Shown here: positions 1 to 21,412 of the stretch, one piece after another
How positions within the stretch are numbered: position 1 is the stretch's first letter
Layout of the letters: each line of letters begins with the position of its first letter
NCBI GenBank assembly: GCA_003213165.1
Contig: QCNO01000001.1
Span: 65,152 to 129,151, forward strand
DNA: 64,000 nt
Source of the DNA: OCS155 cluster bacterium AG-426-D23
GTDB lineage: Bacteria > Actinomycetota > Acidimicrobiia > Actinomarinales > Actinomarinaceae
Direction: 5' to 3'
Program-made: the position numbers and the translations under genes
Notes under the pieces: model-generated
The model's input: only the letters and a program-made list of their open reading frames with translations
What the model was told of the DNA's origin: nothing
Database searches by the model: none

Positions 1-2970
1 CACAGCTGATCTTCTTGTAAGTGCTAATTCCTCAGCAAGTCCATTTACACAATCTGTTCCTTCAGGAAAATATATCGAGTGGAGATATGCTGTATCAGAT
101 GATCAAAATACCCTGGCAACAGCCCCAGCCCAAGCAGCGCTACAATCAACTGCAGTAAATTGTGACATTATTGATCCAAGTTTCTTAACATCACAAGGGT
201 CATGTAGAGACGGGACCAAAGAAGCCTACTTTTTTGCAAAGAATGGTGCTTCCGCAACATCGGATGTATATTTTCAAGTTGAATCAAAAGTTAACGGAGG
301 TGCATGGACATCTGAAAACACAGTGATTGTTGCGCCTAATTCTCAAGTGCAAATTCAAAAACCAAATCTTACAAACGCTGATACGATTCAATGGAGATAC
401 AAGACTTCCAAGGACAATGCAACCTTCTCAACAAACTATCAAGAAACGACTGTAATGACAATTTCTTGTACATCACAAAATGAAGTTGATGGTTTAATTG
501 GAAACACATGTGCATCTAATGGTTCTAAAACCGCAACAGTTACGTCCGTAAATAACAGTTCTTCAGACGTATATTATTTGATTGAGTATGCTCTCGAACA
601 AAATCCTTCAAACTGGTTATCAGTCACAGACAATTTTGGATTACCAGCTCAGGGAAGTAAAGATGATCTTGTCAACCTACCAGAGGGTAGTTACTTTACA
701 TTGAGGTATAAGACTTCTACTAGTAACAGCTTTACAGGTGTTGAGTATAAGACTTTAGATACTTTGGGACCAGTTAATTGTTCAGGTGATATTGAAGTAA
801 GAGTTGCATTAGACGCGTGTGTTAATGGTACGAGAAATTCAGTATTTTATTACCGCAATAAAGCAAGCACAGGGGCACCAGCATTTTTTGAAATTGAATA
901 TCAAATTGATGGTGGAACATGGACTAATCCAAAAGGTGCACAGACAAATAATTACTATACAGCTATACAGAATGGTGTAGAAGAATCTGTTTCAGTTTCA
1001 GTACCTTCGGATTCTACAATTTCATGGAGATATAAAGATACACTATCTGTGAATGCTTTATCAACAAAATCATTTGAATTGGCAACACCTACTCCTTTGT
1101 CAGTATTATGTGAGGGTCTTCTTGAACACACAGTTGCGATTGGATCTTGTGTTGACAGAAAAGCCTCATCAACACTTACTTTGAAAAATATTGGATCTGT
1201 TGATGTGTATGCGGATATTTGGATTAGTTATGATGGTGGAAATTCATGGAATAACCATGCAATAAGCCAGAAAGTTACAACGACTGCAGATAAGGTATTT
1301 ACTCAAAACAATATTGCGAATGGATCAATTGTTAAGTGGAAATATAAGTATGCAAGTACAGCTGCGGGTGTTGCAAGTGCTGATGAAGAACTCACGAATG
1401 ACAAACCTGCAATTAATTGTGATGAAATAGTTATTAGCCAATTAACTTATGAACATAGTTTCGCTAATTGTGTAGAGGGACAAAGGATTGGAACCTTTAA
1501 AATTAACAATCCTTCAACAACAAACAATATTGTTTATGTAGAAGTGCAATACAGAACAAAGTCATCTCTAAATGGTACTTGGTCAGGCTATACGACAATG
1601 CCTATCGAGGCAATCAATGCTGGGTCCTTTAAAGAATTTAGCGCACCTGCTTTAAATGCTAATGGTTATATTAACTGGCAATTTAGATCCTCGTTAGCTA
1701 ATAATGACTTCGCAGGAGCTTGGACAAATGCGTCATCAGCCTACAAATCTGAGTGTTCAATAGACTCAACATTTACTCATACTTTAGGTAATTGTGTAGA
1801 TGGTGAGCAGTACTCTATTTTAACCATTAACAATACCGGATCCGTTACTCAGTACTATAACGTTCAAGTACAAATCAATAATGGAACAGCAGAGACAAAG
1901 TTTGCAAATGTTGCAATCTCGTCTGGATCAAGTGGTGAGTTTAAATGGCCAATCAGACAGGGAGAGTCAATCAGATGGCAATTTATTGCATCTATAGACA
2001 CTGACTTTAGTGATGACAATTCAGTACCATCATTATCAAAGACAAATCAATGTACACCTGTCTTTACATTGCAAACTCAAACAGCCTGTCAAGATGCGTC
2101 TACAGTAAATAACAACCAAGCAACCAATACGAAGGTAACATTAACCTTGAATAACACTTCTTCAGTCGATGGAAGTGTGACTGTTCAATATAGATATTTA
2201 CAAACTGATACATGGAAGACTTTAACGACCACTCCAATTAATGCTAATCAACAAAAGACCGTTGATTACACATTGATTGATCCTTATGTTGAATTTCAAT
2301 ATGCTCCATCTGGAACTACAAATTGGACTAATAGTGGATTAGTTTACAAAATTACAAACTGCACATCAACTGGAAATAGCTTAACTGCGGTAAATGAGTT
2401 TATTTGTAGCGAGAATGATCCATTCTCTCAAGCAAAAATCTCTAACCCAACAAGTACAAGCTTGACTGTCACATATTCCTACTCATTTGATGGGGTAAGT
2501 TGGAATAATGAGACCCCAGTTTTGATAGCTTCCAACCAAACTCACTTTACGGATTTAATTCAAGTATCTCCAGGAACCCAAATTTATTGGAGATATAAAC
2601 CAACGAATCTTGCTGATGACGCCTATAAGACTTTAACTGACACATCACCAACAAACTGTCAAAATGGAACAAGTCAACAAATTCTCCATTCGCTTGGAAC
2701 TTGTGTAGATAATAAGGCGCTTTCAACTATTAAAGTTACAAATATCTCTAGTTCGCAAAAATCATACTTGCTGGAGTACAAGATAGATAATGGTGCATTT
2801 GCTCGATACGAGACTTTAGTCATCGGTGCAGGTAATGACACAACAAAGACCCTACAAATTTCAGATGGACAAAATATACAGTGGAGAATAATTGATGCAA
2901 CTAGCGATGCCTCTACTATATCTGTTGATGGTAATTGGACTTCTTCAACTTCATTAACACTTAATTGCAC
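1..2970 (+). repeat. Diverged tandem coding repeats, ~310 nt per unit and at least 10 units, inside the giant surface protein
   Basis: The first Cys codon of successive modules falls at about 161, 467, 779, 1109, 1418 ... 2966, a spacing of 306-330 nt. The protein motifs recur (C..GxC[VA][DN]G, [IV]xY..DGG.W, WRYK) while the nucleotide sequence has diverged. Confidence 0.8.
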
Positions 2971-3625
2971 AACTACTACTACAACTCTTCCTGAGAACTT
3001 ATTTATTTTCGAACCTTTAATTTCGACAAATAGGGTTTGTGATGAAGACGGTGGAGCTATGTTTGGCATTACTGTTGACAACACAAGGTCCAATGTTGAT
3101 GCAGAAGTTATTCAAAGAGTGTGGGTCGATAAATTTACAGTGTTTGAAAAACAAGAAACTATTCCAGCAGGACAGTTTATTCAGTTCTCCAGTTTTGAAA
3201 TTAGTGAAGATAAGTTTTTCACCGTAGAGTTTGAAGTTACAAATGTTAAAAACAACAAGACACAAACAATGGTTAAAAACAAGACTTCAGACTGTATTGA
3301 CAATGGAATCAGTCCGACTGACGAACAAAATCCTATTGAGGGGATAGAAGTTGAAAATATTATCGATGGAGTTGGCGATGATGAAGAAATGGGAAATAAT
3401 GGAACAGATATTTTCTTCCTTCCTGGTGATGACTTTGTTGAATGGGTATATGATGAAAATGCAACTTCTCCAAATCCAACACCACTTTGTCCTGGAGATG
3501 CCAGTTGTAATAACAATGATGGATATGCAATAACAGGAACTAATGTTGGAAGATTAATAATTTTATTTGGTTCTCTACTTATGTTGATTGGTGGGCTTAT
3601 TTTGAGGAGAGGCTATAGGTACTAG
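1..3625 (+). CDS. Giant repeat-module cell-surface protein, 5' end outside the window, with a C-terminal sortase sorting signal
   Basis: Frame 2 is open from base 2 (T-A-D-L-L...YIEWRYAVSDD...). The ORF-track start at 323 is therefore an internal GTG. There are at least 10 tandem ~104-aa modules. Each opens with a Cys-x12-16-Cys pair and ends with an I/V-x-W-[RQK]-[YF]-[KR] motif. The C-terminus is YAITG + hydrophobic helix + RRGYRY. Confidence 0.85.
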   Translation, partial: TADLLVSANSSASPFTQSVPSGKYIEWRYAVSDDQNTLATAPAQAALQSTAVNCDIIDPSFLTSQGSCRDGTKEAYFFAKNGASATSDVYFQVESKVNGGAWTSENTVIVAPNSQVQIQKPNLTNADTIQWRYKTSKDNATFSTNYQETTVMTISCTSQNEVDGLIGNTCASNGSKTATVTSVNNSSSDVYYLIEYALEQNPSNWLSVTDNFGLPAQGSKDDLVNLPEGSYFTLRYKTSTSNSFTGVEYKTLDTLGPVNCSGDIEVRVALDACVNGTRNSVFYYRNKASTGAPAFFEIEYQIDGGTWTNPKGAQTNNYYTAIQNGVEESVSVSVPSDSTISWRYKDTLSVNALSTKSFELATPTPLSVLCEGLLEHTVAIGSCVDRKASSTLTLKNIGSVDVYADIWISYDGGNSWNNHAISQKVTTTADKVFTQNNIANGSIVKWKYKYASTAAGVASADEELTNDKPAINCDEIVISQLTYEHSFANCVEGQRIGTFKINNPSTTNNIVYVEVQYRTKSSLNGTWSGYTTMPIEAINAGSFKEFSAPALNANGYINWQFRSSLANNDFAGAWTNASSAYKSECSIDSTFTHTLGNCVDGEQYSILTINNTGSVTQYYNVQVQINNGTAETKFANVAISSGSSGEFKWPIRQGESIRWQFIASIDTDFSDDNSVPSLSKTNQCTPVFTLQTQTACQDASTVNNNQATNTKVTLTLNNTSSVDGSVTVQYRYLQTDTWKTLTTTPINANQQKTVDYTLIDPYVEFQYAPSGTTNWTNSGLVYKITNCTSTGNSLTAVNEFICSENDPFSQAKISNPTSTSLTVTYSYSFDGVSWNNETPVLIASNQTHFTDLIQVSPGTQIYWRYKPTNLADDAYKTLTDTSPTNCQNGTSQQILHSLGTCVDNKALSTIKVTNISSSQKSYLLEYKIDNGAFARYETLVIGAGNDTTKTLQISDGQNIQWRIIDATSDASTISVDGNWTSSTSLTLNCTTTTTTLPENLFIFEPLISTNRVCDEDGGAMFGITVDNTRSNVDAEVIQRVWVDKFTVFEKQETIPAGQFIQFSSFEISEDKFFTVEFEVTNVKNNKTQTMVKNKTSDCIDNGISPTDEQNPIEGIEVENIIDGVGDDEEMGNNGTDIFFLPGDDFVEWVYDENATSPNPTPLCPGDASCNNNDGYAITGTNVGRLIILFGSLLMLIGGLILRRGYRY

Positions 3626-5253
3626 TGCAGTATTTTTTTGTATATCTTTTTATTATAATCCTGAATATTGTTGCAGTCCTTGCAGTCCTAAGGGTTAGAA
3701 GAAAAAGACAGAATGATCCAAATGTCATCACTGATGTTCAAGATAGTGATCTTATTTACGATTCAGATCTTGAAGACGAAGTAAAAAAACCACGCTTTTC
3801 GAGATTTTCTAGAAAAAGTAATAATTTAACTGTTGGTTTTAACGATATAGCAATAGATGATAGAGAATTTGTTTATGGAGGAGATTTACTAGACCTTGCT
3901 GTTGAAAAAGAAGTAATCAAGAAAAAGGGAACATGGTATTTATATGAAAATGAAAAGATTGCTTATGGAAAACAAAAGGCAAAGTTTTTCTTATTAGAAA
4001 ATCCTGACATCGCTAATGAGATTAGCAATATAGTTTATGGAACCATACAGGTACAAAATAATGAGATGAGTTCTGAAGAGAGTTCAGATGAAATTTCTAT
4101 AAATAACAATGAAATAGAAAATCAAAAATCTGTAAATTTACTTACACAAGAATACGAAGTTGAGCTTGCTGAAGTTTATATAAAATCAAATACTTTAAAA
4201 AAAATCATTGAAAATACAATTGGGACAGAAGTCTTAATAAGTATCGATATTGGTAAAAAATTTAATCCAGTATTAAATTCTAAAAATTACCTTACAGAAG
4301 TAACAGGCATGTTGAATGAAATGGATTACATGATTGCAGCTGTAGAAAATGTAAGTAAAAACTCAAAATATTTAGGAATCGAAGTAAATGAAGAGCTTTT
4401 AAGAGAAAGACTTAACTTATTAATGTCGAGTCGTTTTACAATTTTATTTACTAAGAAGCCAGTAAGTAAACACCTTTCTTTACCAAGTTTAAATTTCAAC
4501 AACAGAGTAAGCACAGTAACCAGACAGAAATCTGGCTATGTAACAAATAGTGGACGAAGACCTGGGATTGTTCCACTTGGACTTGGCTTATTGATAGCTG
4601 GTCTTCTAGTAATTATTTATTCAATAAGTCAAACTTTTTTCTCAATGTCAGTATTAGATGATGAGCAAAATTTACTTAGTGTCAAATATCAACAAAACCA
4701 GAATATTTCACTTGAAGAATTGCGATCTATAAATTCAAATTCTTTAGAAACAAATGTATCACTTGATGAAACAGGGGAGTTTCAAGAATCCGTTCTAAGT
4801 CTTGTTAGCAAAACAATGAGAAACACAAATGCCAATGAGGAGTTTCTTCCTGATGTTGTAGGAAGATTAATAATATTCCCATCAAATATTGACCACTATG
4901 TTGTTTACGGTTCGAGCTTAGAAAAATTAGAGTTTGGTCCTGGTTATTATCTATCTACAGCTCTTCCAGGAACGGGTGGAAATTTTGCTATTGCCGGGCA
5001 CAGAACTACTTACGGTGCCCCATTTAAAAATTTAGATAAACTTGAACCCGGAGATAACATATACTTTCAAACTAATTCAAACCAATATACATATACGGTG
5101 AGTGAGATAAAAATTGTGGATCCAAGTGAAACATATTTGTTATCTTCATTTGGAGATGACAGGATTACATTAACAACTTGTCACCCAAAATTCTCAGCTA
5201 GGCAAAGACTGGTTGTTGTAGGTATGTTGACAAAAATTGAGGTATTTGGATGA
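3625..5253 (+). CDS. Sortase (class-E-like catalytic domain) with an N-terminal TM helix and a long cytoplasmic extension carrying a RecA C-terminal-domain-like segment
   Basis: The C-terminal ~130 aa carry the sortase triad context AIAGHR ... LTTCHP ... ARQRL. TM helices lie at aa 4-22 and ~315-338. aa 81-138 resemble the RecA C-terminal domain. The GTG start overlaps the upstream TAG stop (TAGTG). Confidence 0.85.
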   Translation: MQYFFVYLFIIILNIVAVLAVLRVRRKRQNDPNVITDVQDSDLIYDSDLEDEVKKPRFSRFSRKSNNLTVGFNDIAIDDREFVYGGDLLDLAVEKEVIKKKGTWYLYENEKIAYGKQKAKFFLLENPDIANEISNIVYGTIQVQNNEMSSEESSDEISINNNEIENQKSVNLLTQEYEVELAEVYIKSNTLKKIIENTIGTEVLISIDIGKKFNPVLNSKNYLTEVTGMLNEMDYMIAAVENVSKNSKYLGIEVNEELLRERLNLLMSSRFTILFTKKPVSKHLSLPSLNFNNRVSTVTRQKSGYVTNSGRRPGIVPLGLGLLIAGLLVIIYSISQTFFSMSVLDDEQNLLSVKYQQNQNISLEELRSINSNSLETNVSLDETGEFQESVLSLVSKTMRNTNANEEFLPDVVGRLIIFPSNIDHYVVYGSSLEKLEFGPGYYLSTALPGTGGNFAIAGHRTTYGAPFKNLDKLEPGDNIYFQTNSNQYTYTVSEIKIVDPSETYLLSSFGDDRITLTTCHPKFSARQRLVVVGMLTKIEVFG

Positions 5254-6815
5254 AGTCTAAAAAATTTATTTCTGTTTTCCTCATATTTTTATTTTTTATA
5301 AATGCTGGAGATATTGAAGATGCTGAAATCAACATTTCAGCACAACGAGTTGACTCAAATGATTTAGTTATTTCCTGGTCAATGAACGAAGTTGAAAACT
5401 TACAAAATATAGTTCTGGAGGTATTATTTGAAAATCCTGAAGATGGACAAATTGAAAACCCACTAATCATTGACAATATCACAATGGACGAACTTATTGG
5501 TTCAAGAACAATTAATTGGAGTGGAGAGTCTAAATTATTCATAAAATTAAAAATATCAACATTTAATTTTGTTCAATACACGGGCGATGACTGCACTCAT
5601 ACTTTCTGTTTAAGAGAAGTTACAGAAGAGTATGAATCAGAGGAATTTATTATTGATGAAATGCCTGAAATACCAATATTAGTTCCGACTACTATTGCAA
5701 CACCCGATATCAATTTAGACGCTACAGAAGAAAGTTCTACAGTTGGTAATATCGAATTTACAAACCAATTAATAACAACTATTCCATTATTTAGTGATAT
5801 AGACTTTTCAGATCAGGCAAAAAATGCATTTGCATTTGGTATTACCTCAATGATTATATTTTTATTTTATGCTGTTCTATTAGCACAAGAATGGTTCAAT
5901 AGAATTATTTCACACTATAGAGTGAAATGGACAAGAAGAGAGAGTGTCTTACAGGAAAAAACCAGACTAGAGACATTCATGGAGATTTCATTAATGGCAA
6001 TGATTACTTCTTTGATATATGCTTTTGTTGAAGAGGGTTTTACATTTTCTGTAGAGCCACAAAATCTAGCAATATTTCTTGGTGTTTTGTTTGGGTTGAT
6101 TATTGTAACATTTTCTTATGAGGGAATTGAGTCTTTGATTGAATACTTTAAATATAATCAAAAAACAAGATTTAGTTGGAATCCGCAAGCTATGTTCTTT
6201 GCTATTTTATCCACCATACTATTTATTGTTATAGACCTTCCTTTTGGTTTTATATTAGGTTTCATAGCTTCTTTGCACATAGTTTCAAATCGTCGCCAAG
6301 CAAATCTATCACCCAAGTTTTTCTCTATGATCTCTTTGGCTATTGTCGGATATTTATTCTTCTATGCAACCTCATTTGATTCGGTACAAAATTCAGGCGT
6401 ACTAATGGCGGTTTGTAAATTGACTTACCTTATGTGTCTTGAGGGTGTCATCTTTAAAGCTGTTCCATGGGGTGGCAATGAGTTGTTTGATGCAATTGGA
6501 GATTCAAAAGGACTAAATCAAGCATTGCCTGTTGTTAGTTTTCTAATAAGTGTATGGCTGTTTATTAGAATTTTGGTATTACCTCCAGACAGTGAATTTA
6601 ATGCCATGCAGCAGACATTGTTACAAAGTGGATCATTAGCATATAGATTTGCTCTAGTTTTGCTTTTCTATATTTTGATTATTCTTATTTTAGGAAATTT
6701 CATGAAAAAATATGCTGAATTGAATAGACCTCTAGATTACGATGGCAGTGAAATTGCTTCAGATGAAGAAATAGGTGAAATTATTGAGGAAGAATTAGAA
6801 GATTCAATTCGCTAA
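5250..6815 (+). CDS. Polytopic membrane protein with a signal peptide, a ~190-aa extracellular beta-rich domain and an acidic C-terminal tail; function unknown
   Basis: ATGA overlap with the sortase stop codon. N-terminal signal peptide MKSKKFISVFLIFLFFINA. About 8-9 hydrophobic helices lie between aa ~195 and 500. The tail is DYDGSEIASDEEIGEIIEEELEDSIR. I recognise no family. Confidence 0.7.
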   Translation: MKSKKFISVFLIFLFFINAGDIEDAEINISAQRVDSNDLVISWSMNEVENLQNIVLEVLFENPEDGQIENPLIIDNITMDELIGSRTINWSGESKLFIKLKISTFNFVQYTGDDCTHTFCLREVTEEYESEEFIIDEMPEIPILVPTTIATPDINLDATEESSTVGNIEFTNQLITTIPLFSDIDFSDQAKNAFAFGITSMIIFLFYAVLLAQEWFNRIISHYRVKWTRRESVLQEKTRLETFMEISLMAMITSLIYAFVEEGFTFSVEPQNLAIFLGVLFGLIIVTFSYEGIESLIEYFKYNQKTRFSWNPQAMFFAILSTILFIVIDLPFGFILGFIASLHIVSNRRQANLSPKFFSMISLAIVGYLFFYATSFDSVQNSGVLMAVCKLTYLMCLEGVIFKAVPWGGNELFDAIGDSKGLNQALPVVSFLISVWLFIRILVLPPDSEFNAMQQTLLQSGSLAYRFALVLLFYILIILILGNFMKKYAELNRPLDYDGSEIASDEEIGEIIEEELEDSIR

Positions 6816-6821
6816 AGCTTA

Positions 6822-7604
6822 ATGAATAACAGAGCAACATGGGTGTCTTTTTCAATACTAGCTATTGGGATATTCTTGATTGTTTCATACAACAATATCT
6901 TGAGCGGTACTGCAACAACTACTACTATTCCAACAACTACTACTATTCCAACAACAACCACAACGTCTACCACAACTACAACATCTACGACAACTACAAC
7001 TACTACTATTCCAACAACAACCACAACAGTTGAGGTAACCCTAGAGAAAGATTCGGTGACTATAAATGATGATAGTCCTATAGACGTCACCCCATACGAA
7101 GGTGTATTTGTAGCTTTTGATGGATTCGAGGGTGAAAACCAAACTTTATTAGATACTTTGGTACAAAATCTTCCTGAAGTGTACAAGCAAACAATGTTAG
7201 AAAAAATATCATTTATAAATGGTTGTCACCTCTACGGGGTAGAAATGTTGGGTGAATGTCCATTCGGTGTATGGGACTCAGTAGGAACATTTAAAAATGG
7301 AGATACAAATGCTGATTGGAAATTATCGATATGGGTATCAAATAGAGCCTTTAAGGCGAATAGGGCTTTTGATACATTGCTACACGAGTCTTCACATGCA
7401 TTTTCTTACCTCAGTAGGAACTGTATTGCGCCAGATGGTTCAAACAAAAGAAAGCAGGCCCAGGAGTATTTTGGTAGTGAAGAACTTTTTGCAGATTCTT
7501 TAGTTCTCTATTTCGGTGGAGATTATGTTTTTTATCGAGAAACAGATGTTTTAACTGATACAGAGGTTAGTTACTTAAAAGAATTTATAGATCTCTGCAG
7601 CTAA
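6822..7604 (+). CDS. Membrane-anchored protein with a Thr-rich linker and a HExxH zincin-like domain (putative metallopeptidase)
   Basis: N-terminal TM anchor WVSFSILAIGIFLIVSY. About 40 aa of T/P/I/S linker follow. The motif LLHESSHAF (HExxH) is at 7383..7397, with a downstream acidic GSEELFAD. The start is 6 nt after the previous stop. Confidence 0.65.
   Translation: MNNRATWVSFSILAIGIFLIVSYNNILSGTATTTTIPTTTTIPTTTTTSTTTTTSTTTTTTTIPTTTTTVEVTLEKDSVTINDDSPIDVTPYEGVFVAFDGFEGENQTLLDTLVQNLPEVYKQTMLEKISFINGCHLYGVEMLGECPFGVWDSVGTFKNGDTNADWKLSIWVSNRAFKANRAFDTLLHESSHAFSYLSRNCIAPDGSNKRKQAQEYFGSEELFADSLVLYFGGDYVFYRETDVLTDTEVSYLKEFIDLCS
6909..7029 (+). repeat. Low-complexity ACN/CCA codon repeat encoding the linker TTTIPTTTTIPTTTTTSTTTTTSTTTTTTTIPTTTTT
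   Basis: Read directly in the sequence. The unit actactactattccaacaac recurs three times, interspersed with acaac/tctac variants. Confidence 0.9.
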
Positions 7605-7654: not shown

Positions 7655-8506
7655 ATGGAAAACTTACAGGGATTAATTGACTCGTCGGTTACTTTAAGAA
7701 CGATACCCCCAATGATTCCAGTGCTTTTTTACTTTTTAGGAACACAATCTTCTTTGGAAAGTATTCAGACTACTTTTAAAGACAGGAAAACATTGACATA
7801 TGCTTTATTATTTCAAATAATAACACTTCCAGCAATAGGTCTCATTCTTTCTCAAATTTTTAGTGATAGTATTTTTTCTTTATCAATAGCTGTAGTGCTT
7901 TTGGCTCCTGGAGGTTTTATTTCTGGTATTCTTACTCATTTTAAGGATGGCAATATTCCATTATCAGTAACACTCACTTCAATTACTTCACTTGTATCTC
8001 CTTTAACAACTGTTTTGTGGTTGAGTTTGATAAGCGTAAACTTAGATGATTTTAATTTCAATATTCTCCAGACATTTGTACAGCTAGCATTACTTATATT
8101 TGCTCCCTACATGACTGGCTTCTACCTAAATTATAAAGGAGTAAAAATAGTTAAAAAAACATCACCTTTTCTTGATAAGTTTTTAAAGATTTATATTTTA
8201 ACAATTACAATTACTGGACCATATGAACTTCGAGAACCGCTCATTAACTATTTTGGTGAAAGTATAATTTTGGTGTTTAGTTCTATTTTCTCAATATATG
8301 TTTTGCAAAACTTAACATCAAAATTAACCCAGATTAGTAGGGTCGATGATAGAACAGTGCTAATAGAGGCGCTTTGTCAAAACTTTCCAATTGTTTTGAC
8401 ATTATCAATTATCTTGAATATACCAGAAATGGCAATATTTGGAATTGTTTACTATTTAATGACATTAATTTTTGTTGTTCCATATTCATTAATCAAAACT
8501 AATTAA
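7655..8506 (+). CDS. Multi-pass membrane transporter, possibly of the bile acid:Na+ symporter (BASS/SBF-like) family
   Basis: 283 aa with ~8-9 hydrophobic helices. The LLAPGGFISGILT segment resembles the CPGG..S motif region of BASS proteins. The family assignment is tentative. Confidence 0.45.
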   Translation: MENLQGLIDSSVTLRTIPPMIPVLFYFLGTQSSLESIQTTFKDRKTLTYALLFQIITLPAIGLILSQIFSDSIFSLSIAVVLLAPGGFISGILTHFKDGNIPLSVTLTSITSLVSPLTTVLWLSLISVNLDDFNFNILQTFVQLALLIFAPYMTGFYLNYKGVKIVKKTSPFLDKFLKIYILTITITGPYELREPLINYFGESIILVFSSIFSIYVLQNLTSKLTQISRVDDRTVLIEALCQNFPIVLTLSIILNIPEMAIFGIVYYLMTLIFVVPYSLIKTN

Positions 8507-8616
8507 TTTTAAATCTTGTTGATTTAATAAATATATGTATATAATGAGAATGTCTTTCAGACAAATACAATTCACAAATCAATTCAAACAAATTTGATTT
8601 ATATATAGGAGAAAAT

Positions 8617-9963
8617 ATGTCCGCAAGATCACAGTTACAATCAAAACCAGTTGCAGACTTGAGGTCAATAGCTGAAAGTTTAGGTATTGAACATAAGGGA
8701 CTCCAAAAAGCAAAATTAATTGATCTACTAGTTGAACACAGTGATGATATTTTAGAGTCAATTGAAGAAGAGACACCGGAAGTTATTAGTGCATCTAAAG
8801 ATGATGATGCTCCTTCTGTTGTCAGTTCTGGAAGCAGCGAAATTAAAAAAGGTGAAATAAGAGAAGGTATCTTGGATACATTACCTGAGGGATATGGGTT
8901 TTTAAGATGTAATGGATATAAACCAAGTGAAGAAGATGTTTATGTCGCTGCTGGAGTTATTAAGAAATACAGAATGCGAAAGGGAGACTTAGTTAGCGGT
9001 CCAATTCGTGCACCTAGACAAAAAGAAAAGTATCCTGCATTAATTGAACCAAAAACAGTCAATGGTGCAGACCCAGAATTACTTGCCAGACGAGTAGACT
9101 TCAATAAATTAACACCATTGTTTCCAGATGAGAGATTAAAGCTAGAAATTGATGGAAGTCCACAGAAAATTCTTCCAAGAATTGTTGATTTAATCGCACC
9201 AATAGGGAAAGGTCAAAGAGGATTGATTGTTTCCCCTCCTAAAGCAGGTAAAACAACAATTTTGAAAGAAATTGCAAACTCAATTACTACAAACAATCCT
9301 GAAGTTTATTTGATGGTGGTACTTGTTGATGAAAGGCCTGAGGAAGTCACCGATATGCAGAGATCTGTTGATGGTGAAGTTGTATTTTCAACATTTGATA
9401 GACCACCAGATGAACATACACAGGTATCAAGATTAGCAATCGAAAGAGCTAAAAGACTAGTAGAAGAAGGAAAGGATGTTGTCATTTTACTTGATTCTAT
9501 TACTCGTCTTGCTCGTGCCCACAACTTAGCAACACCTGCGAGCGGTAGAATTTTATCAGGTGGTGTCGATTCGACAGCATTAACACCTCCAAAACAGTTC
9601 TTTGGTGCAGCAAGAAACATTGAAGGTGGAGGTAGTTTAACTATTCTTGGTACTGCCCTTGTTGAGACTGGTTCAAAAATGGATGAGGTTATCTTTGAGG
9701 AGTTTAAAGGAACTGGAAATATGGAGTTACGCCTCGATAGACAACTTGCAGATAAACGAGTTTTCCCAGCTATTGATGTCACTCCTTCAGGTACAAGAGA
9801 AGAGCAAAGACTTGTATCTCCAAAAGAACTCGAATCGTTATGGGCATTAAGAAGAGTTTTAGTTGCTCTTGAAGGCGGAGCCGCAACAGAGCTTTTAATT
9901 GATAAATTAAAAGAGACGAAGAGCAACGACGCTTTCTTAAAAGACGTAGCAAAAGCAAAATAA
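8617..9963 (+). CDS. rho: Transcription termination factor Rho
   Basis: Rho N-terminal domain (LRSIAESLGI), an RNA-binding CSD-like region (GYGFLR), Walker A GKGQRGLIVSPPKAGKTT and the hallmark RVFPAIDV...SGTR. AGGAG RBS upstream. Confidence 0.97.
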   Translation: MSARSQLQSKPVADLRSIAESLGIEHKGLQKAKLIDLLVEHSDDILESIEEETPEVISASKDDDAPSVVSSGSSEIKKGEIREGILDTLPEGYGFLRCNGYKPSEEDVYVAAGVIKKYRMRKGDLVSGPIRAPRQKEKYPALIEPKTVNGADPELLARRVDFNKLTPLFPDERLKLEIDGSPQKILPRIVDLIAPIGKGQRGLIVSPPKAGKTTILKEIANSITTNNPEVYLMVVLVDERPEEVTDMQRSVDGEVVFSTFDRPPDEHTQVSRLAIERAKRLVEEGKDVVILLDSITRLARAHNLATPASGRILSGGVDSTALTPPKQFFGAARNIEGGGSLTILGTALVETGSKMDEVIFEEFKGTGNMELRLDRQLADKRVFPAIDVTPSGTREEQRLVSPKELESLWALRRVLVALEGGAATELLIDKLKETKSNDAFLKDVAKAK

Positions 9964-10002
9964 TCATATAAAGTAGATTAGATATTATTGTAAAGTGGAA
10001 TT

Positions 10003-10296
10003 ATGAAACAAGGTATACACCCAGATTATAGAGAAGTTGTTTTTCAGGATGAAGATGCGGGTTTCGCATTCCTTACTCGTTCAACTATAAAAACAAATGA
10101 AACTATTCAATGGGAAGATGGAAATGAATATCCATTAGTTAAACTAGAAATCTCTAGTGCAAGCCATCCTTTCTTTACAGGAAAACAAAAACTTGTTGAC
10201 TCTACAGGAAGAGTTGAAAGATTTAAACAACGTTACGGATCTACCAGTACAAGACAAGCCCCTAAAGCTGAAGTATCTTCTCAAGAAGAAGAATAA
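10003..10296 (+). CDS. rpmE: 50S ribosomal protein L31, type B (zinc-independent form)
   Basis: MKQGIHPDY...[13 protein letters not shown]...RFKQRYG. The CxxC pairs of type A L31 are absent. Canonical rho-rpmE-prfA position. Confidence 0.92.
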
Positions 10297-10317
10297 CTTA
10301 GCTTTTCTTAATTTATT

Positions 10318-11232
10318 ATGTCTGATATTAATATTTCTTATGGTGGCCAAGCAGTAATTGGCGGTGTTCTTATACAAAGTCCAAAAGGTTGGTCTCTAGG
10401 TATTAGAGATAAAGATGACAATCTACACAGATATTATGAGCCAAGGATTCCTCTAGTGCAAAGAAATAAATTTTGGTCATCTCCATTTATAAGAGGCTTT
10501 GGAGCTCTAATTGATTCAATGTATGTTGGGTTTAAGGCAATTACATTATCGGAAAAAATTTATTTTAAATTTGAAGATGAGGAGGAAAGTTTATTGTCAA
10601 AGGTTGTTACCTATTCTGTATTAATCGCAGTTCTTTTACTTTTTATTGCTGGTCCAAGATTGCTCGTTGAAATGATAAATTATCCCCAGATTGGTACAGG
10701 TCTAATTGAGGGAATATTTCGAGGAGTAATAGTAATAATATATGTTTATTTAATTGGTAGAACAAAGGACGCTCAAGAACTTTTTGAATACCACGGGGCA
10801 GAGCATATGACTATTGCTTCTTATGAAGACCAGCAATCACTTGAGTTTGACAATGTCATGAAATACCCAAAAGAGCATGTTAGATGTGGTACATCCTTCC
10901 TTTTTTTGATAGTTCTCATTAGCCTTCTTACCTTACCCTTTATTCCAAATTTAGACATTTTAATGACAACAGTTACAAGACTTTTACATGTTGTACTTGT
11001 CTCTATGATTTCTTATGAGGTGCTTAAATTTAACTTTAAAAACTCGGACTCAATTATTGCCAAAATATTTGCTACTCCTGGTATTTGGGTACAAAAAATA
11101 ACAACTAAAAATCCATCAAAAGAACAAATAGAAGTCGCAATTTTATCAATGGCTAATTGTATTACTCATTCAGAAAATACAAATCGATTCGATAAAATTC
11201 TTCAAAACACAAGTGAGGTCAAAATTGGATAA
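10318..11232 (+). CDS. DUF1385 (YqhQ-like) membrane protein
   Basis: ISYGGQAV.GGV ... YHGAEH signature followed by hydrophobic C-terminal helices. It sits in the conserved position between rpmE and prfA. Confidence 0.8.
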   Translation: MSDINISYGGQAVIGGVLIQSPKGWSLGIRDKDDNLHRYYEPRIPLVQRNKFWSSPFIRGFGALIDSMYVGFKAITLSEKIYFKFEDEEESLLSKVVTYSVLIAVLLLFIAGPRLLVEMINYPQIGTGLIEGIFRGVIVIIYVYLIGRTKDAQELFEYHGAEHMTIASYEDQQSLEFDNVMKYPKEHVRCGTSFLFLIVLISLLTLPFIPNLDILMTTVTRLLHVVLVSMISYEVLKFNFKNSDSIIAKIFATPGIWVQKITTKNPSKEQIEVAILSMANCITHSENTNRFDKILQNTSEVKIG

Positions 11233-12307
11233 TTCACTTCATGAAAAATTAATTGCAATTGAAGCTTCACTACCTGAAATAGAAAAACAATTGTCTGAAA
11301 TGGATATCTCTAGTGATCAAAAAGCCTACGCAGAAATGGCAAAAAAACATAGTGATGTATCTGCAATTGTTGAATTATTTGGAGAATGGAAAGAAATAAA
11401 TCTTGAAATAGCTGATGCTGAAGAATTATTTCAATCAGAATCTGATGAAGAAATGAAGTCTGAGTTTGAAGAAATAATTTCTGAGAATAAATTAAAGCTT
11501 GATCCCTTAGTACAAAAAATAAAAATTTCACTTCTTCCCAAAGACCCATCAGATGATAAAGATGTCCTTGTAGAAATAAGGCCTGGAGCAGGAGGGGAGG
11601 AAGCAGCTATATGGGTAGGTGACCTCTATAAAATGTATACAAGATTTGCAGAAAGAAGTTCATGGAAGGTAGAGCCAATAGAAATAACTGACTCTGATAT
11701 GGGCGGCTATAGCAAAATTATTTTTGCCATAAAATCTAAAGGAGTTTATTCGAAGCTTAAATTTGAGGCCGGAGCACATCGAGTACAAAGGGTACCCAAA
11801 ACAGAATCGCAAGGTAGAGTCCATACTTCTATTGCTACCGTAGCAGTTCTACCAGAAGCCGAAGAAGTTGACATAAATATAGATCAAAATGACTTAAAAG
11901 TGGATGTTTACAGGTCTAGTGGACCAGGAGGACAAAGTGTAAATACTACTGACTCAGCTGTAAGAATTACTCATATTCCAACTGGGTTAGTCGTTTCCTG
12001 TCAAGATGAAAAATCCCAACTACAAAATAAAGAAAAAGCTATGCGAATTTTAAGAGCACGTCTTTTAAAGGCTGAGCAGGAAAAAGCAGCAGCCGAAAGA
12101 GCCAAAGATAGAAAAGAACAAGTGGGTTCTGGAGAGAGATCAGATAAAATAAGAACTTACAATTACAAAGACAATAGAGTTTCAGACCACAGAATTAATT
12201 TAACACTTAAAAAATTAGATCAGGTTCTTGACGGAGATTTAGATGAATTCATAGATGCATTGGTTTCTGACAATGAGGCATCAAGACTTGCAAACCTTGA
12301 TGAATAA
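11213..12307 (+). CDS. prfA: Peptide chain release factor 1
   Basis: GGQ motif (SGPGGQSVNTTDSAVRITHIPTG), a PxT tripeptide region (RVPKTESQGRVHTS) and an RF1-like length. Confidence 0.96.
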   Translation: MRSKLDNSLHEKLIAIEASLPEIEKQLSEMDISSDQKAYAEMAKKHSDVSAIVELFGEWKEINLEIADAEELFQSESDEEMKSEFEEIISENKLKLDPLVQKIKISLLPKDPSDDKDVLVEIRPGAGGEEAAIWVGDLYKMYTRFAERSSWKVEPIEITDSDMGGYSKIIFAIKSKGVYSKLKFEAGAHRVQRVPKTESQGRVHTSIATVAVLPEAEEVDINIDQNDLKVDVYRSSGPGGQSVNTTDSAVRITHIPTGLVVSCQDEKSQLQNKEKAMRILRARLLKAEQEKAAAERAKDRKEQVGSGERSDKIRTYNYKDNRVSDHRINLTLKKLDQVLDGDLDEFIDALVSDNEASRLANLDE

Positions 12308-13056
12308 TGGGAATTCAAAATATTCCTGAACACGAATTAGCAAGATTGCGTGAAAAAGCCAAAGAGATTACAGGCTCTCAGTTTGATTATCAGTCATCTT
12401 ACACTGAGTTACTTTCAAGAAGACTAAATGGTGAACCATTGCAATACATTGAAGAGTATGTTCCTTTTTATTCAATACAAATTAATGTTGATCAGCGGTG
12501 TTTGATACCTAGACCTGAAACTGAATATATGATTGAAATTATTAAAAATAATATAAGTGCACCAAAAAAAATCTTAGATGTTGGCACCGGATCTGGATGT
12601 ATAGCACTCATGATGAAAAAACTATTTCCTGACTCAGAAGTGCATGCAGTAGATATATCTAATGATGCTATAACTTTGGCAAAAGAAAATGCCGAGATTA
12701 ACAATCTTGAAGTGAATTTTTATCAGTCAGATCTTTTAACCAATGTAGAAAAATTAGATTTTGATCTTATTGTTGCTAACCTTCCTTATATTCCTACAAG
12801 CAATCTCCCAACACTACAAAAAGAAGTCATAGATTATGAACCATTAATCGCTCTTGATGGTGGAGAAGATGGGCTGCTTTATATAAATAAATTATTAGAT
12901 AATCTAAAAAACACTAATTCAAATGAGTTAGTCCTAGTACTTGAAGTAGACATATCTCATGCCCAATCTTTACGAGATTCAATTACTGATTGGAAAGATG
13001 TAAAATTAGAGAAAGACTTAGTTGAAAGAGACAGATACATTGTTGCAAGAAAATAA
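12307..13056 (+). CDS. prmC: Release factor glutamine N5-methyltransferase (PrmC/HemK)
   Basis: SAM-binding motif LDVGTGSGCIA. The catalytic-motif position reads ANLPYIP, a variant of NPPY. Directly follows prfA with an ATAATG junction. Confidence 0.88.
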   Translation: MGIQNIPEHELARLREKAKEITGSQFDYQSSYTELLSRRLNGEPLQYIEEYVPFYSIQINVDQRCLIPRPETEYMIEIIKNNISAPKKILDVGTGSGCIALMMKKLFPDSEVHAVDISNDAITLAKENAEINNLEVNFYQSDLLTNVEKLDFDLIVANLPYIPTSNLPTLQKEVIDYEPLIALDGGEDGLLYINKLLDNLKNTNSNELVLVLEVDISHAQSLRDSITDWKDVKLEKDLVERDRYIVARK

Positions 13057-13624
13057 TTTGGAATCAGCAATTAATGCCATCAAAAATGGGGAAGTCATTG
13101 GTATTCCTACTGAAACAGTTTATGGGATAGGTGTTGATCCCTATTCACAAACTGCAGTAGATAAAATATTCTCTTTAAAAGAAAGAAGTGACACAAAACC
13201 TTTATCGATTCTTATTAGTTCATTTTATGAAATACAAAAACTAAACCTTGTGACAACTATCCCTGATGTTGTGGAATTATATTGGCCTGGACCATTAACT
13301 ATTATTGTTGAAACTTCCAACAATTTTGCAAATGGGGTTGGAACTAAAGAACCTAGCTCAATTGGAGTAAGGGTGCCAGAAAATGAACTAGCAATCAACC
13401 TTCTTAAATTGACCGGACCTCTCGCTGTAACAAGCGCAAATATTTCTGGTGAAGAGGAGATTACAAGCGATAAACAAGCAAAAGACATATTTGGAGATAA
13501 AATTTCTTATTACTTATCTGGTGAGTCTCTTCATGGAAATGGTTCAACTGTTGTTGATCTTAGAGTTGATGGTGGAGAGGTTTTAAGGCAAGGCCCACTT
13601 AAATGGCCTCCAAGTTACTGTTAG
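13022..13624 (+). CDS. tsaC: L-threonylcarbamoyladenylate synthase (YrdC-domain, TsaC/Sua5 family)
   Basis: IGIPTETVYGIG ... SIGVRVP ... LAVTSAN signatures. The true start may be the in-frame TTG at 13058, just after the prmC stop. Confidence 0.88.
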   Translation: MKETDTLLQENNLESAINAIKNGEVIGIPTETVYGIGVDPYSQTAVDKIFSLKERSDTKPLSILISSFYEIQKLNLVTTIPDVVELYWPGPLTIIVETSNNFANGVGTKEPSSIGVRVPENELAINLLKLTGPLAVTSANISGEEEITSDKQAKDIFGDKISYYLSGESLHGNGSTVVDLRVDGGEVLRQGPLKWPPSYC

Positions 13625-13633
13625 GATATATAT

Positions 13634-14896
13634 ATGACACAAAACGGAGCATCTCAAGAATCTTTATCTTCTGTAGACAAAGAGGTAGCTGGATTAATTG
13701 ATTCCGATCTTGGCCGTCAAAATTCACACATACACTTAATAGCTTCTGAAAACTTTGCGTCAAAGGCTGTCATGGAGGCTTCCGGCTCAATTCTAACTAA
13801 TAAATATTCAGAGGGATTTCCCGGAAGAAGGTATTACGAGGGATGTGAAATTATTGATGAAATTGAGCAATTAGCTATTGATAGAGCATGTGAGCTATTT
13901 GAATCAGATCATGCTAATGTCCAGCCCCATTCCGGATCTTCTGCCAACATGGCAGTGTACCTATCTCTACTTGAACCAGGCGATACCGTTTTAGGTATGT
14001 CACTGGATCAAGGTGGTCACTTGACTCATGGTTCACCAGTAAATTTTTCAGGTAGAGTTTATAACTTTATTGGGTACGGACTGGATAAAGACACAGAGCT
14101 CATCGACATGGAAGAAGTCTACAGAATGGCAGTGGAGAATAAACCGAAACTGATAATTGCAGGATATTCTTCATATTCACAATCTCTAGATTATAAGAGG
14201 TTTAGGGAGATAGCTGATGAGGTAGGGGCATATCTGCTTGTAGATGCAGCTCATTTTATAGGACTTGTTGCAGGAAAAGTTGTTGAAAATCCAACAAAAT
14301 ATGCTCATGTAGTAACTGCGACTACACACAAAGCATTAAGAGGTCCAAGGGGTGGACTTATTTTGTGTAAAGAAGAATTAGCAAAAACTATAGATAAAAA
14401 TATTTTCCCAGGTGCTCAGGGAGGGCCACTAAACAATCAAATAGCTGCTAAAGCAGTTTGTTTTAAAGAGGCCATGACAGAAGATTACAAAAGCTATGCT
14501 CAACAAATTTTAAACAACGCAGTAGCATTAGCCGAATCATTTATTGGCGAAGGATTAAGAGTAGTAAGTGGTGGAACGGAGAATCATATTGTTCTAGTTG
14601 ACACTAGAAGTGTTGATGATGAATTGACTGGAAAAGATGCCGGTATTTTATTAAATAACAAAGGAATAACCTTAAATCGAAATGCTATTCCTTTTGACCC
14701 AAGGTCACCTTTCATTACTTCAGGAATCCGAATGGGTACACCTGCTGTCACAACCTGTGGAATGGCTGAAAAAGAAATGATTGAAGTTGGCTATCTTATT
14801 TCTGAAATTTTAAAGTCAAGAAATGATGATAAAAAACTCAATGAACTTGAAACAAAAGTTCGAGATATTGCAAAAGAATTTCAACCTTATGGCTAA
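13634..14896 (+). CDS. glyA: Serine hydroxymethyltransferase
   Basis: [18 protein letters not shown] and the PLP-lysine context [16 protein letters not shown]. Confidence 0.97.
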
Positions 14897-15104
14897 GTCT
14901 AAATTAAGCCTTCAAGAATTTGGTCCTGTATCATCTTTTTCAACATCTATATTAAGTGGTTTGATGATTGGTCTTGCTATCCAGTACTTTATAGGATATG
15001 AACCATTTCCTGTAGTGATATTCGTGTTGGTTGGAATATATGATGGATACAGGAGAATGTGGAAAATATCAAAAAAGATGGAAGGTGAAGATATTGAACG
15101 TTGA
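14889..15104 (+). CDS. AtpZ/AtpI-family small membrane protein (putative F0F1-associated subunit)
   Basis: 71 aa with two hydrophobic helices. The ATG at 14889 overlaps the glyA stop. The longer ORF-track start at 14823 lies inside glyA and is less likely. Confidence 0.6.
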
Positions 15105-15123
15105 GATTGAGATAGCTAAAAGA

Positions 15124-15498
15124 ATGCTTTTGAGATCTTCCCCTATATATGTGCTTACACCTATCGTATTTTTGCTGAGATCACAAGAGGCCTTTTTCTC
15201 TTCATTATTCTCCTCTTTAATAGTAGCTACTGGTTTTTTTCTTGGAGCAGTAATCATGTCTTATGCGGCAAAAATTTCTCTTAATTTTTATTATTTTGCC
15301 GCTTTATTTGGCTATGTTTTTAGATTAATTTTTATATTTGGGTTTCTCTTATTACTAAAAAGTGTATATTCTGTTGATAATTTGGCAATGTCTTTGACAG
15401 TGCCAATTGTCTTTTTAGCTATGTTATTCATAGAGATGACTATGGTTATTAAGAGAAAAGACACAGATTTAGATTGGGCAAATGATAACAGCAGCTGA
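15124..15498 (+). CDS. atpI: ATP synthase protein I-like membrane protein
   Basis: 124 aa with 4 hydrophobic helices, immediately upstream of atpB. The ORF-track start at 15031 would overlap the preceding gene by 74 nt, so I prefer the ATG at 15124. Confidence 0.55.
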   Translation: MLLRSSPIYVLTPIVFLLRSQEAFFSSLFSSLIVATGFFLGAVIMSYAAKISLNFYYFAALFGYVFRLIFIFGFLLLLKSVYSVDNLAMSLTVPIVFLAMLFIEMTMVIKRKDTDLDWANDNSS

Positions 15499-16288
15499 AA
15501 CTTGTGATTTTGTAAATCAAGTTGTTTGCAAACCTGCAAACGTAAAAGAGTTATTCGAGTTCACAAATTTTGCAGGTACTCAGATTTCGAGAACTGAAGT
15601 ACTGATTCTTTTGGCAGCAATTATCCCAGTCGTAGTTGTATTTTTTGGATTAAGAAAAAAATCTGTTGTACCAGGCAAATTACAGTCAGCAGTTGAGTCT
15701 ATTTTTTCATTTGTTAAAGATGAGATCGCTCTTGGTGTAATTGGAAGAGGTGGTGAAAAATTTACTCCCTACCTAGTTTCAATTTTTCTTTTTATTCTTG
15801 TTGGTAATCTTTTTGAGGTAGCTCCATTAATAAACTTTCCAGTCACTTCTCGCATGGCTCTTCCATTGTTCTTAAGTCTGATTACATATTTTATTTTTGT
15901 TTTTGTAGGAATAAGAGAAGAAGGTTTTGGCTACATATCGCATTTAGTTTGGCCACCTGGTGTTCCAGTTGCCCTAAAACCTCTAGTTGGAATCATTGAA
16001 CTCGTTTCGGTTTTACTTGTAAGACCATTTAGTTTAGCGGTCCGACTTTTTGCAAACTTGGTCGCAGGTCATGTTATGTTGAGTTTGTTATTGGCATCTG
16101 CGTATTTTTTCATTGTTCAACCAGGTGGTGCAGATTATATTCTGTCTAAAGCACCTGTAGGACTAGCTTGGTTCACCCTTGGTTTAGGAATTTATGGTTT
16201 CGAATTAATTGTTTCGATTTTGCAGGCATACATTTTTACATTGTTGTCTGCAGTGTATATACAAACGTCTCTGCACCCAGAGCATTAA
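15482..16288 (+). CDS. atpB: F0F1 ATP synthase subunit a
   Basis: Conserved LAVRLFANL.AGH arginine-containing helix; polytopic membrane protein. Confidence 0.95.
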   Translation: MITAAETCDFVNQVVCKPANVKELFEFTNFAGTQISRTEVLILLAAIIPVVVVFFGLRKKSVVPGKLQSAVESIFSFVKDEIALGVIGRGGEKFTPYLVSIFLFILVGNLFEVAPLINFPVTSRMALPLFLSLITYFIFVFVGIREEGFGYISHLVWPPGVPVALKPLVGIIELVSVLLVRPFSLAVRLFANLVAGHVMLSLLLASAYFFIVQPGGADYILSKAPVGLAWFTLGLGIYGFELIVSILQAYIFTLLSAVYIQTSLHPEH

Positions 16289-16507
<219 letters not shown>

Positions 16508-16523
16508 GAGCAAAAGAGTGAAC

Positions 16524-17054: not shown

Positions 17055-17062
17055 TTAGCAAG

Positions 17063-17590: not shown

Positions 17591-17591
17591 A

Positions 17592-19109: not shown

Positions 19110-19112
19110 ATT

Positions 19113-19982: not shown

Positions 19983-19993
19983 GGAGAAAATAA

Positions 19994-21411
<1,418 letters not shown>

Positions 21412-21412
<1 letters not shown>

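Follow-up and report, generated by a model that had tools for sequence, protein, structure and literature searches.

Gram-positive fibrillar adhesins, such as SasG, Ebh, the Rib/alpha-like proteins and the surface proteins of Actinomyces and Corynebacterium, share a common layout in which a signal peptide and a non-repeat head are followed by a stalk of arrayed Ig/FN3-like domains, a wall-spanning segment and an xxxTG motif with a transmembrane (TM) helix and a basic tail, with a sortase gene as neighbor. The same layout is found for the gene analyzed here, whose C-terminal part occupies the first 3,625 nucleotides of a 64,000-nucleotide stretch (referred to as the window) from the OCS155 cluster bacterium AG-426-D23 (contig QCNO01000001.1, positions 65,152 to 129,151). 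Bacterial surface proteins of this giant, repeat-built and sortase-anchored kind are familiar; the domain family from which this one is built is in no curated library. In contrast to the Gram-positive adhesins, the Actinomarina repeat is an unclassified FN3-like family with an Asp-box and two Cys residues, and its about 30 copies are ~19% identical, whereas the repeats of many adhesins are near-identical. Moreover, the Actinomarina host is free-living, genome-streamlined and planktonic, and its sortase differs by an additional TM helix and a presumably cytoplasmic RecA_C-like domain. Taken as a whole, we consider it reasonably probable that the gene encodes a real, selected, wall-anchored FN3-like fiber.

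The repeated module and bacterial FN3 domains (PF00041; as in the giant protein P0034) have in common a seven-strand sandwich, a 'Y.[IV]EYS.DGG..W' C-C' region and an aromatic ladder on the F strand, but the Actinomarina module lacks the B-strand Trp and contains two invariant Cys residues, which probably contribute to a disulfide from the A-B turn to the C-terminus. Similar to the Asp-box (BNR) proteins of the sialidase and reelin type, several of the modules contain an apparent S-x-D-x-G-x-[TS]-W beta-hairpin, although here one hairpin occurs per FN3-like sandwich and not in the blades of a beta-propeller. The catalytic domain of the neighboring sortase is closest to class E, the class of SrtE1 and SrtE2 of Streptomyces coelicolor, which recognize LAXTG substrates (PMC5148588), likewise begin with a cytoplasmic segment ahead of the TM helix, and share with the Actinomarina enzyme the actinobacterial host and Ala at substrate position P3. 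However, the Actinomarina sortase has two TM helices flanking a region of ~290 aa with the RecA_C-like domain, scores below the class E cut-off and is paired with a motif carrying Tyr at P4, while its gene is coupled to one giant substrate and appears fused to it in a sister lineage. In isopeptide-clamped pilins a covalent bond connects the start and end of each domain and tension bypasses the fold, a property that the Actinomarina module would share if the proposed disulfide is right; in contrast to these pilins, the clamp would be a disulfide and not a Lys-Asn isopeptide bond, and the fiber is one polypeptide and not a sortase-polymerized pilus.

A single giant gene under purifying selection

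The features described below for 2..7604 of the window lie on the + strand. Frame 2 is open from nucleotide 2 to 3622 (1,207 codons) and ends with a TAG stop at 3623-3625, and the other two + frames across nt 2-3625 are stop-rich; the feature at 2..3625 consists of the C-terminal 1,207 codons and the stop of a giant surface-protein gene that starts upstream of the window. The same gene is present at 98-100% identity in four Candidatus (Ca.) Actinomarina/OCS155 assemblies, with 100% identity to the window in the single-cell genome AG-426-L21 and 98% in the single-cell genomes AG-349-A01 and AG-349-E07. A copy with 98% identity lies on contig DBHI01000017.1 (L003) of a metagenome-assembled genome deposited as 'Anaerolineales bacterium UBA832', which is probably a mis-binned or mislabeled Actinomarina contig. 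The complete open reading frame (ORF) in AG-349-E07 (locus L004, 4367-15349) has 3,660 codons and encodes an acidic protein of ~393 kDa with an isoelectric point of ~4.5, which is rich in Thr (12.9%), Ser and Asn. The window opens within the last third of this single ~11-kb gene of Ca. Actinomarina (OCS155 marine Actinobacteria), in agreement with a preliminary description of the window, made from its letters alone, that had proposed a protein of more than 1,200 aa and a gene running off the 5' edge. In L004, a signal peptide and a head of ~290 aa precede 29 modules detected with a hidden Markov model (HMM), after which the protein ends like the window product, so that L004 and the window together define about 29-30 tandem ~100-aa domains followed by a poly-Thr linker and one divergent domain. 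The secretion signal, which runs from a K-rich n-region through a hydrophobic core to AYA just ahead of the mature protein, was read by eye in L004 and P0155 (cleavage after AYA), the N-terminus itself lying outside the window. Together with the sorting signal and the coupled sortase gene discussed below, this signal peptide of the orthologue supports the earlier designation as a giant surface protein.

When the window was compared with L004 (dS 0.12), the ratio of non-synonymous to synonymous substitution rates (dN/dS) of the giant gene was 0.086 over 1,207 codons, similar to those of the sortase gene (0.17) and the downstream membrane protein gene (0.063). The giant gene is evidently functional, without diversification at strain level, and a hypervariable or strain-level diversifying antigen was ruled out on the basis of these values.

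Tandem repeat modules

The 1,207-aa product of the window comprises one partial and 10 complete modules of ~100 aa. The partial module 0 (2..160; aa 1-53) ends with YIEWRYA and corresponds to the first HMM domain (profile positions 56-93). Modules 1-9, in the phase of the preliminary description, extend over 152..2956 (aa 51-152, 153-256, 257-366, 367-469, 470-581, 582-680, 681-783, 784-882 and 883-985) and were recognized by the motif skeleton, by alignment, by HMM and by AlphaFold models of modules 9 and 4+5. The divergent last module 10 (2957..3295; aa 986-1098), which lacks both the Asp-box and the WRY motif, contains a poly-Thr linker after Cys989 and closes with the lone Cys1098, an arrangement that recurs in P0001, P0003, P0006, P0007, P0012, P0052 and P0139. 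In a MAFFT alignment the modules follow the skeleton xxNC, 11-23 residues, C, a 'TLTL.N' strand, 'Y..VEY..DGG..W' and 'G..I.WRY'. The closing motif W[RQK][YFI] occurs eight times, at the positions given earlier, and modules 2 and 7 end with the weaker forms TLRY and EFQY. The proposal of at least 10 tandem modules with a shared skeleton is confirmed by the Cys positions, the alignment and an independent HMM, and the predicted first-Cys positions (nt 161, 467, 779, 1109, 1418 ... 2966) match exactly. The proposed spacing C-x12-16-C describes most modules, but the full range is C-x11-23-C, and the suggested 'GxC[VA][DN]G' start is found in about half of the modules and not in the rest.

The independent HMM was built solely from modules of the distant homologs P0002 and P0003 (about 26% identical) and is non-circular in this respect. 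It recovered module 0 and modules 1-6, 8 and 9 with the same boundaries at 13-49 bits, whereas the best of 200 shuffles reached 6.6 bits; with this HMM, module 7 (5.0 bits) did not rise above the shuffles and module 10 was not detected. The mean pairwise identity among the modules is 19%, and neither Tandem Repeats Finder nor a repeat finder detected a ~310-nt DNA repeat, the echoes found being just 18-31 nt long and confined to conserved motifs. Since the modules have diverged to this extent without a repeat at the DNA level, the copies are old. Along with the dN/dS of 0.086, this agrees with the earlier view of old repeats kept under selection, and a recent repeat expansion or an assembly artifact was ruled out by the lack of a DNA repeat and the agreement of four independent assemblies.

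Fold and family placement of the module

AlphaFold2, run with the module alignment, predicted module 9 as a sandwich with strands at 10-16, 23-32, 38-46, 52-59, 64-72 and 77-84 (predicted local distance difference test score, pLDDT, 82.9), while the model of modules 4+5 reached a pLDDT of 90.3 and showed an extra short G strand in each tail. Overall, both models consist of six long strands and a short G strand and form seven-strand beta-sandwiches; a beta-sandwich was the fold that the preliminary description had suggested testing for in a single module. A Foldseek search of the PDB with module 9 returned generic Ig/FN3-like accessory domains (TM-score ~0.5, E ~1e-3), among them those of GH29, GH2 and GH3 enzymes, DUF1425 and transglutaminase barrels, and the two-module model matched tandem FN3 pairs of Ihog, RbmA, IL-17RA and cytokine receptors as well as transglutaminase barrels 1-2. 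Likewise, hhalign comparison of the module profile with the bacterial Asp-box FN3 repeats of P0034, which were identified as such by Pfam fn3 (3e-284), gave a probability of 94.8% and an E-value of 4.8e-8 over strands B-F. The strand order of the models, the Foldseek matches and the hhalign result all place the module in the FN3/Ig-like (E-set) superfamily.

Judged by its sequence, the 'DGG..W' element ('YS.DGG..W'), listed in the preliminary description as the unnamed '[VI][EQ]Y..DGG.W', most likely corresponds to the known Asp-box (BNR) hairpin S-x-D-x-G-x-T-W at the C-C' position. It is visible in several modules (SYDGGNSW in module 4; YSFDGVSW) and as SLDGGSNW in P0002, and 3 of the 34 single modules match BNR (PF02012) at E<=0.05, many others carrying a hairpin that is one residue shorter (IDGGTW). 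The F strand of the module carries the 'I.WRY' motif. Asp-box-like 'S.DGG..W' elements are also present in each repeat of many unrelated giant proteins (FN3 arrays, SprB repeats), among them P0034, P0005 and P0040. In P0034, 'VSSDGGSNW' is located at the C-C' turn of each Pfam-fn3 domain, which indicates that Asp-box variants of FN3 are common in bacterial giant proteins.

When the fragment, the full-length orthologue and the 34 single modules were scanned against Pfam and NCBIfam, nothing exceeded a cut-off, and a sequence-profile search of the PDB with the module gave weak Asp-box-type matches alone (E >= 0.006). The sub-threshold Pfam and PDB matches (Reelin_subrepeat-B, F5_F8_type_C, CHB_HEX_C, BNR, sialidase, reelin) all align to 'YS.DGG..W', and identities as Reelin_subrepeat-B, F5_F8_type_C, CHB_HEX_C or Tli3 were rejected as partial matches driven by the Asp-box. 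For the galactose-binding-like families (PF00754, PF21471), no single module matched over the full length (best single-module E 7e-5, covering part of the profile), and the matches of P0002 were summed and partial (profile columns ~56-107 or 60-123). We read the module from these models and comparisons as an FN3-like domain that has diverged and whose C-C' hairpin is an Asp-box, and as an unclassified family of a recognizable superfamily. The earlier statement that the module cannot be assigned to a named domain holds insofar as no curated Pfam or NCBIfam model claims it and no family model passes its cut-off; however, the superfamily is recognizable, and any notion of a module beyond known folds has to be abandoned, since Foldseek and profile-profile comparison place it among the FN3/Ig-like sandwiches.

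Sorting signal and coupled sortase gene

The last module is followed by an acidic stalk of 76 aa (3296..3523; 19 D/E, 0 K/R) with a small CPGDASC loop, the presumed wall-spanning segment, and by the LAxTG-type sorting motif YAITG (3524..3538; aa 1175-1179), which is replaced by YAVTG in L004 and by LAATG in P0003/L005. The region 3551..3622 encodes an 18-residue hydrophobic helix, RLIILFGSLLMLIGGLIL, and then the basic tail RRGYRY. An xxxTG pentapeptide, a hydrophobic helix and a basic tail, the three parts of a cell-wall sorting signal, are all present, and this is the sole credible sorting signal among all ORFs of the 64-kb window.

The gene immediately downstream (3625..5253) encodes a sortase of 542 aa (Pfam Sortase 9e-31). 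Its N-terminal helix TM1 is followed by RVRRKRQ, a ~290-aa region that is presumably cytoplasmic and contains the RecA_C-like domain (PF21096, 8.9e-19; aa 86-138), a second helix TM2 (aa ~314-334) and the catalytic domain. His457 (AGHRTT), the Cys of TLTTC519 and Arg (ARQRLVV) are the predicted catalytic residues, the substrate has Ala at P3 as expected for class E, and the best solved relatives include SrtE1 (PDB 5cuw). The general sortase model TIGR01076 was passed with 70.7 against a cut-off of 39.35, and class E (NF033747) was the best class in NCBIfam. The combination of Sortase and RecA_C was found in all but one of 120 marine-metagenome homolog clusters among the matches listed, down to 53% identity. 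Stop and start codons of the giant gene and the sortase gene, respectively, overlap (3623-3627) as TAGTG, or as TAATG in L001, and the conservation of this overlap in 5 genomes fixes the sortase start codon and implies translational coupling. As the sortase stop also overlaps the ATG of the next gene (5250-5253), the overlaps at both ends of the sortase gene suggest one translationally coupled operon.

In a lineage about 26% identical, the C-termini of the giant proteins (P0003 and L005) show LAATG, a TM helix and RKRK and then continue into the sortase. The last module, stalk, LAATG, TM helix and basic tail run in frame into the sortase (L005 6642-8435; P0003 aa ~580-1210) without a stop in two independent records (JGI and ENA), although this in-frame fusion could also be a sequencing or assembly error. 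In this lineage the helix of the sorting signal may double as TM1 of the sortase, which would allow the substrate to be sorted in cis.

A Gram-positive pilin was rejected as an identity for the giant protein, the sortase matching best as class E and not class C and the protein being a single 3,660-aa chain; general scans gave no Pfam match to pilin domains, the pilin-motif Lys not having been searched for explicitly. Readings of the protein as an S-layer (SLH) protein, a pilus or a carbohydrate-binding module (CBM)/discoidin protein were likewise considered and rejected on tests of family membership.

Disulfide phase and alternative explanations

The window product contains 23 Cys residues, 20 of which form ten close pairs, 99-112 aa apart (aa 54/68, 156/170, 260/273, 370/383, 473/490, 585/598, 684/696, 787/802, 886/901 and 989/1013). 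In the mature full-length protein the order is Cys62, the pairs, the lone Cys3551 and Cys3616/3622. Parity of the Cys residues, the positions of linkers and paired extra Cys residues suggest a shifted phase, with the second Cys of pair n bonded to the first Cys of pair n+1, which would staple each domain, the proposed partners being separated by 84-97 residues in the window. A competing arrangement is a bond between the two Cys residues of the same pair, which would create a small N-terminal loop round strand A and no mechanical staple, while the sortase-anchored FN3-like fiber would otherwise be unchanged and have ordinary linkers between its domains. Such a bond would suit the short and fairly regular spacing within pairs (mode 13-14 residues in 76 family proteins) and the general occurrence of short Cys loops in secreted proteins, but in both models the two Cys residues of each pair are separated by an extended strand A of 6-7 residues. 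Moreover, with bonds within pairs two residues of the full protein, Cys62 and Cys3551, would have no partner, whereas the shifted phase alone pairs the Cys list completely, with C62-C350 closing the head and C3466-C3551 (window 1013-1098) closing the last domain; the N-terminal 'W.CND' Cys and the terminal 'DGA[SG]C' of the head are retained even where head sequences have diverged. Low-complexity linkers (poly-Thr or acidic, 22-45 residues) directly follow the first Cys in more than 12 family members, as in the window itself (TLNC-TTTTTTLPENL..., aa 989-1013), and such a linker is natural between domains but odd when enclosed in a small disulfide loop. Additional Cys residues form two C-x-C motifs, one at the second Cys of a pair and the other at the first Cys of the following pair, both in L004 (1877/1879 and 1975/1977) and in the separate cluster P0032, which bonding within pairs would turn into three Cys residues in each of two neighboring modules. 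The single-module model, which lacks the next 'NC', is disordered at both termini including the first Cys, again at odds with a bond inside the pair, although in the two-module model the first Cys region still reaches a pLDDT of ~78 without a downstream partner. On balance, bonding within the pairs seems unlikely to us, if far from negligible, and the 'Cys-pair start' of the preliminary description probably has the wrong phase, the first Cys more likely ending the previous domain and the second being located in the A-B turn.

Two further alternatives concern the function of the array and its attachment. The modules could be independent beta-sandwich or galactose-binding/reelin-subrepeat-like CBMs, with the array acting as a multivalent glycan binder and not as a passive stalk. 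The sub-threshold or summed Pfam matches to Reelin_subrepeat-B, F5_F8_type_C and CHB_HEX_C, the weakness of the FN3 signal without the Asp-box and the glycoside hydrolase accessory domains among the best single-domain Foldseek matches point in this direction, but the Pfam matches span just 30-60 profile columns at the Asp-box with no single module passing a cut-off, the module has ~100 aa and seven strands compared to the ~130-150-aa jelly roll of discoidin/reelin subrepeats, and the two-module search returned tandem FN3 pairs; we therefore regard a glycan-binding array as improbable. A similarly slim chance is given to a protein without covalent wall anchoring, whose helix would serve as a membrane anchor or which would be shed as a matrix or S-layer-like material, with the sortase serving other substrates. 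A departure of the motif from LAxTG at P4, the class E score of the sortase and the restriction of the scan for other substrates to 64 kb of the genome would allow for this, but the tripartite signal is complete (xAxTG, ~18 hydrophobic residues, basic tail) with a canonical LAATG in distant orthologues, the stop/start overlap with the sortase gene is conserved, and adjacency of substrate and sortase is kept at 26% identity with an in-frame fusion in that lineage. Several observations nevertheless weigh against the preferred reading of a stapled, wall-anchored FN3-like fiber. Besides the order around the first Cys of the two-module model, which would be partnerless under the staple hypothesis, fragment P0025 contains an odd extra Cys that is explained by neither phase. 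Pfam fn3 (PF00041) did not match the whole protein or any of the 34 modules even at E<=1, and hhalign, when the Asp-box columns were deleted on both sides, kept the same register at a probability of 39% and an E-value of 3e-4, so that the FN3 homology is carried largely by the Asp-box, on an FN3 template alignment of low diversity (Neff 2.4). The class E score of the sortase (125.9 bits) is under the cut-off of 160, the YAITG motif fits LAXTG by Ala at P3 but has Tyr and not Leu at P4, the 53% identical relative P0001 has IPFTG as its motif, and the head profile found nothing better than E 0.085-0.2 (MRJP, G-beta) in the PDB and Pfam.

Relatives, head domain and genomic context

A word-indexed homolog search with the giant protein found three relatives only, P0001 (53% identity) and P0002/P0003 (25-26%). 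An exhaustive profile search of cluster representatives gave 756 clusters at E <= 0.001 with a bimodal distribution; about 75 of the best 150 of these, for the most part short fragments from metagenomes, contain true modules (>=30 bits, mostly 50-110), whereas the long SprB, fn3 and SLH proteins in the best 150 are cross-matches, with 10-25 bits per repeat via Asp-box-like hairpins. A family widespread in other phyla was ruled out on these grounds; the module family proper looks narrow, and we infer that it belongs to Actinomarinales-like marine lineages. The giant-gene calls of P0002 and its contig (L005 2-6645) are broken, with a Q/L-rich nonsense C-terminus past the poly-Thr tract, and look like assembly frameshifts at low-complexity ACN repeats, making database lengths of family members unreliable. 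The head, ~290 aa in length, Cys-closed and N-terminal in the L004 orthologue, has no recognizable family and retrieved 4 fragments in a word-indexed search. Its sequence gives a faint hint of a beta-propeller-like structure. By analogy with other fibrillar adhesins, it would most probably serve as a tip that binds a ligand or particle or acts as an enzyme; binding of a ligand or particle is favored, and enzyme display may also be possible.

In the window, the giant gene is followed by the genes for the sortase, two membrane or secreted proteins, SBF, rho, DUF1385, prfA, prmC and glyA, those from SBF to glyA being identified by Pfam in the stretch within 7655-22556, and it is preceded in L004 (29-4280) by hom, thrC and a TetR-family gene. 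In L005, where the locus is just 26% identical, the giant gene and the genes for the sortase, the membrane proteins and the SBF transporter follow one another in this same order. The co-directional gene at 5250..6815, overlapping the end of the sortase gene, encodes a polytopic membrane protein of 521 aa with a signal peptide and an extracellular N-domain, which matches the NCBIfam 'FGLLP motif-containing membrane protein' weakly (46.6 bits, cut-off 150). Its membrane part is 49% identical to the product of a 313-aa gene adjoining the sortase in the distant L005; it is a candidate member of the sortase system. The next gene (6822-7604) encodes a protein of 260 aa in which a TM helix at the N-terminus is joined through a poly-Thr/Pro/Ile linker of ~45 residues to a C-terminal domain with the sequence HESSH, which resembles the HExxH motif of metallopeptidases; the protein has no Pfam match and is 48% identical to the gene at the equivalent position in L005. 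The ORFs at 16479-22556 are presumably the ATP synthase (atp) operon, to judge by their sizes, and hom-thrC...rho-prfA-atp is what we take to be a conserved actinobacterial housekeeping block. If this holds, the surface-protein cassette would lie inside the core genome as an insertion in core synteny and not in a flexible island. A flexible island has been described for the order (PMC7771536), and this order-level genome paper makes no mention of a sortase or giant protein; in the literature searched, no paper combined 'Actinomarina' and 'sortase'.

Proposed mechanism and significance

In the proposed mechanism, Sec export, signal-peptide cleavage and oxidative folding would come first. The Cys in the A-B turn would then bond the Cys ending the same domain, the 'NC' taken earlier as the start of the next module, and each domain would read [strand A, Cys, B...G, Cys], with the B-G core clamped and strand A as the sole element bearing force between successive disulfides. 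The coupled class-E-like sortase would cleave YAIT|G and link the Thr to peptidoglycan, with the acidic stalk spanning the wall. The product would be an acidic rod of ~100-130 nm (30 domains x ~3.5-4 nm, estimated from typical FN3 dimensions), which would place the head at a long distance from the wall of a very small cell. A more far-reaching reading, which we regard as decidedly tentative and unlikely to be right in every part, combines the disulfide-stapled fiber, the helix-sharing sortase and the RecA_C-like domain into a dedicated one-substrate sorting system, among the smallest free-living cells. According to this reading, the ~120-nm fiber would be mechanically inextensible, a disulfide analog of isopeptide-clamped pilins; the sortase would share or duplicate the membrane helix of its substrate, being coupled here and fused in the P0003/L005 lineage, where fusion would make the protein self-sorting in cis; and the RecA_C-like domain would have a regulatory role.

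No major concept is changed by these results, since giant sortase-anchored repeat proteins are already well known; what distinguishes this one is its host, its cost to a streamlined genome, a domain family that is unclassified and probably stapled by a disulfide, and the unusual sortase partner. The module represents a compact, well-predicted domain family that neither Pfam nor NCBIfam includes and that could be added to both, and the staple disulfide, if true, would be a simple natural design for force-resistant FN3 arrays. Likewise, the RecA_C-bearing sortase and the in-frame fusion of substrate and sortase offer starting points for work on sortases. Ca. Actinomarina is an actinobacterium abundant in the surface ocean, with cells reported to be ~0.3 um across and a genome of about 1 Mb, of which the 11-kb gene would take up ~1%. 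A passive 'fur' against grazers or phages is a possible role of the fiber. More generally, its share of the genome and the strong purifying selection acting on it suggest that the fiber is central to the contact of this organism with its environment, be it with particles, phytoplankton, grazers or phages.

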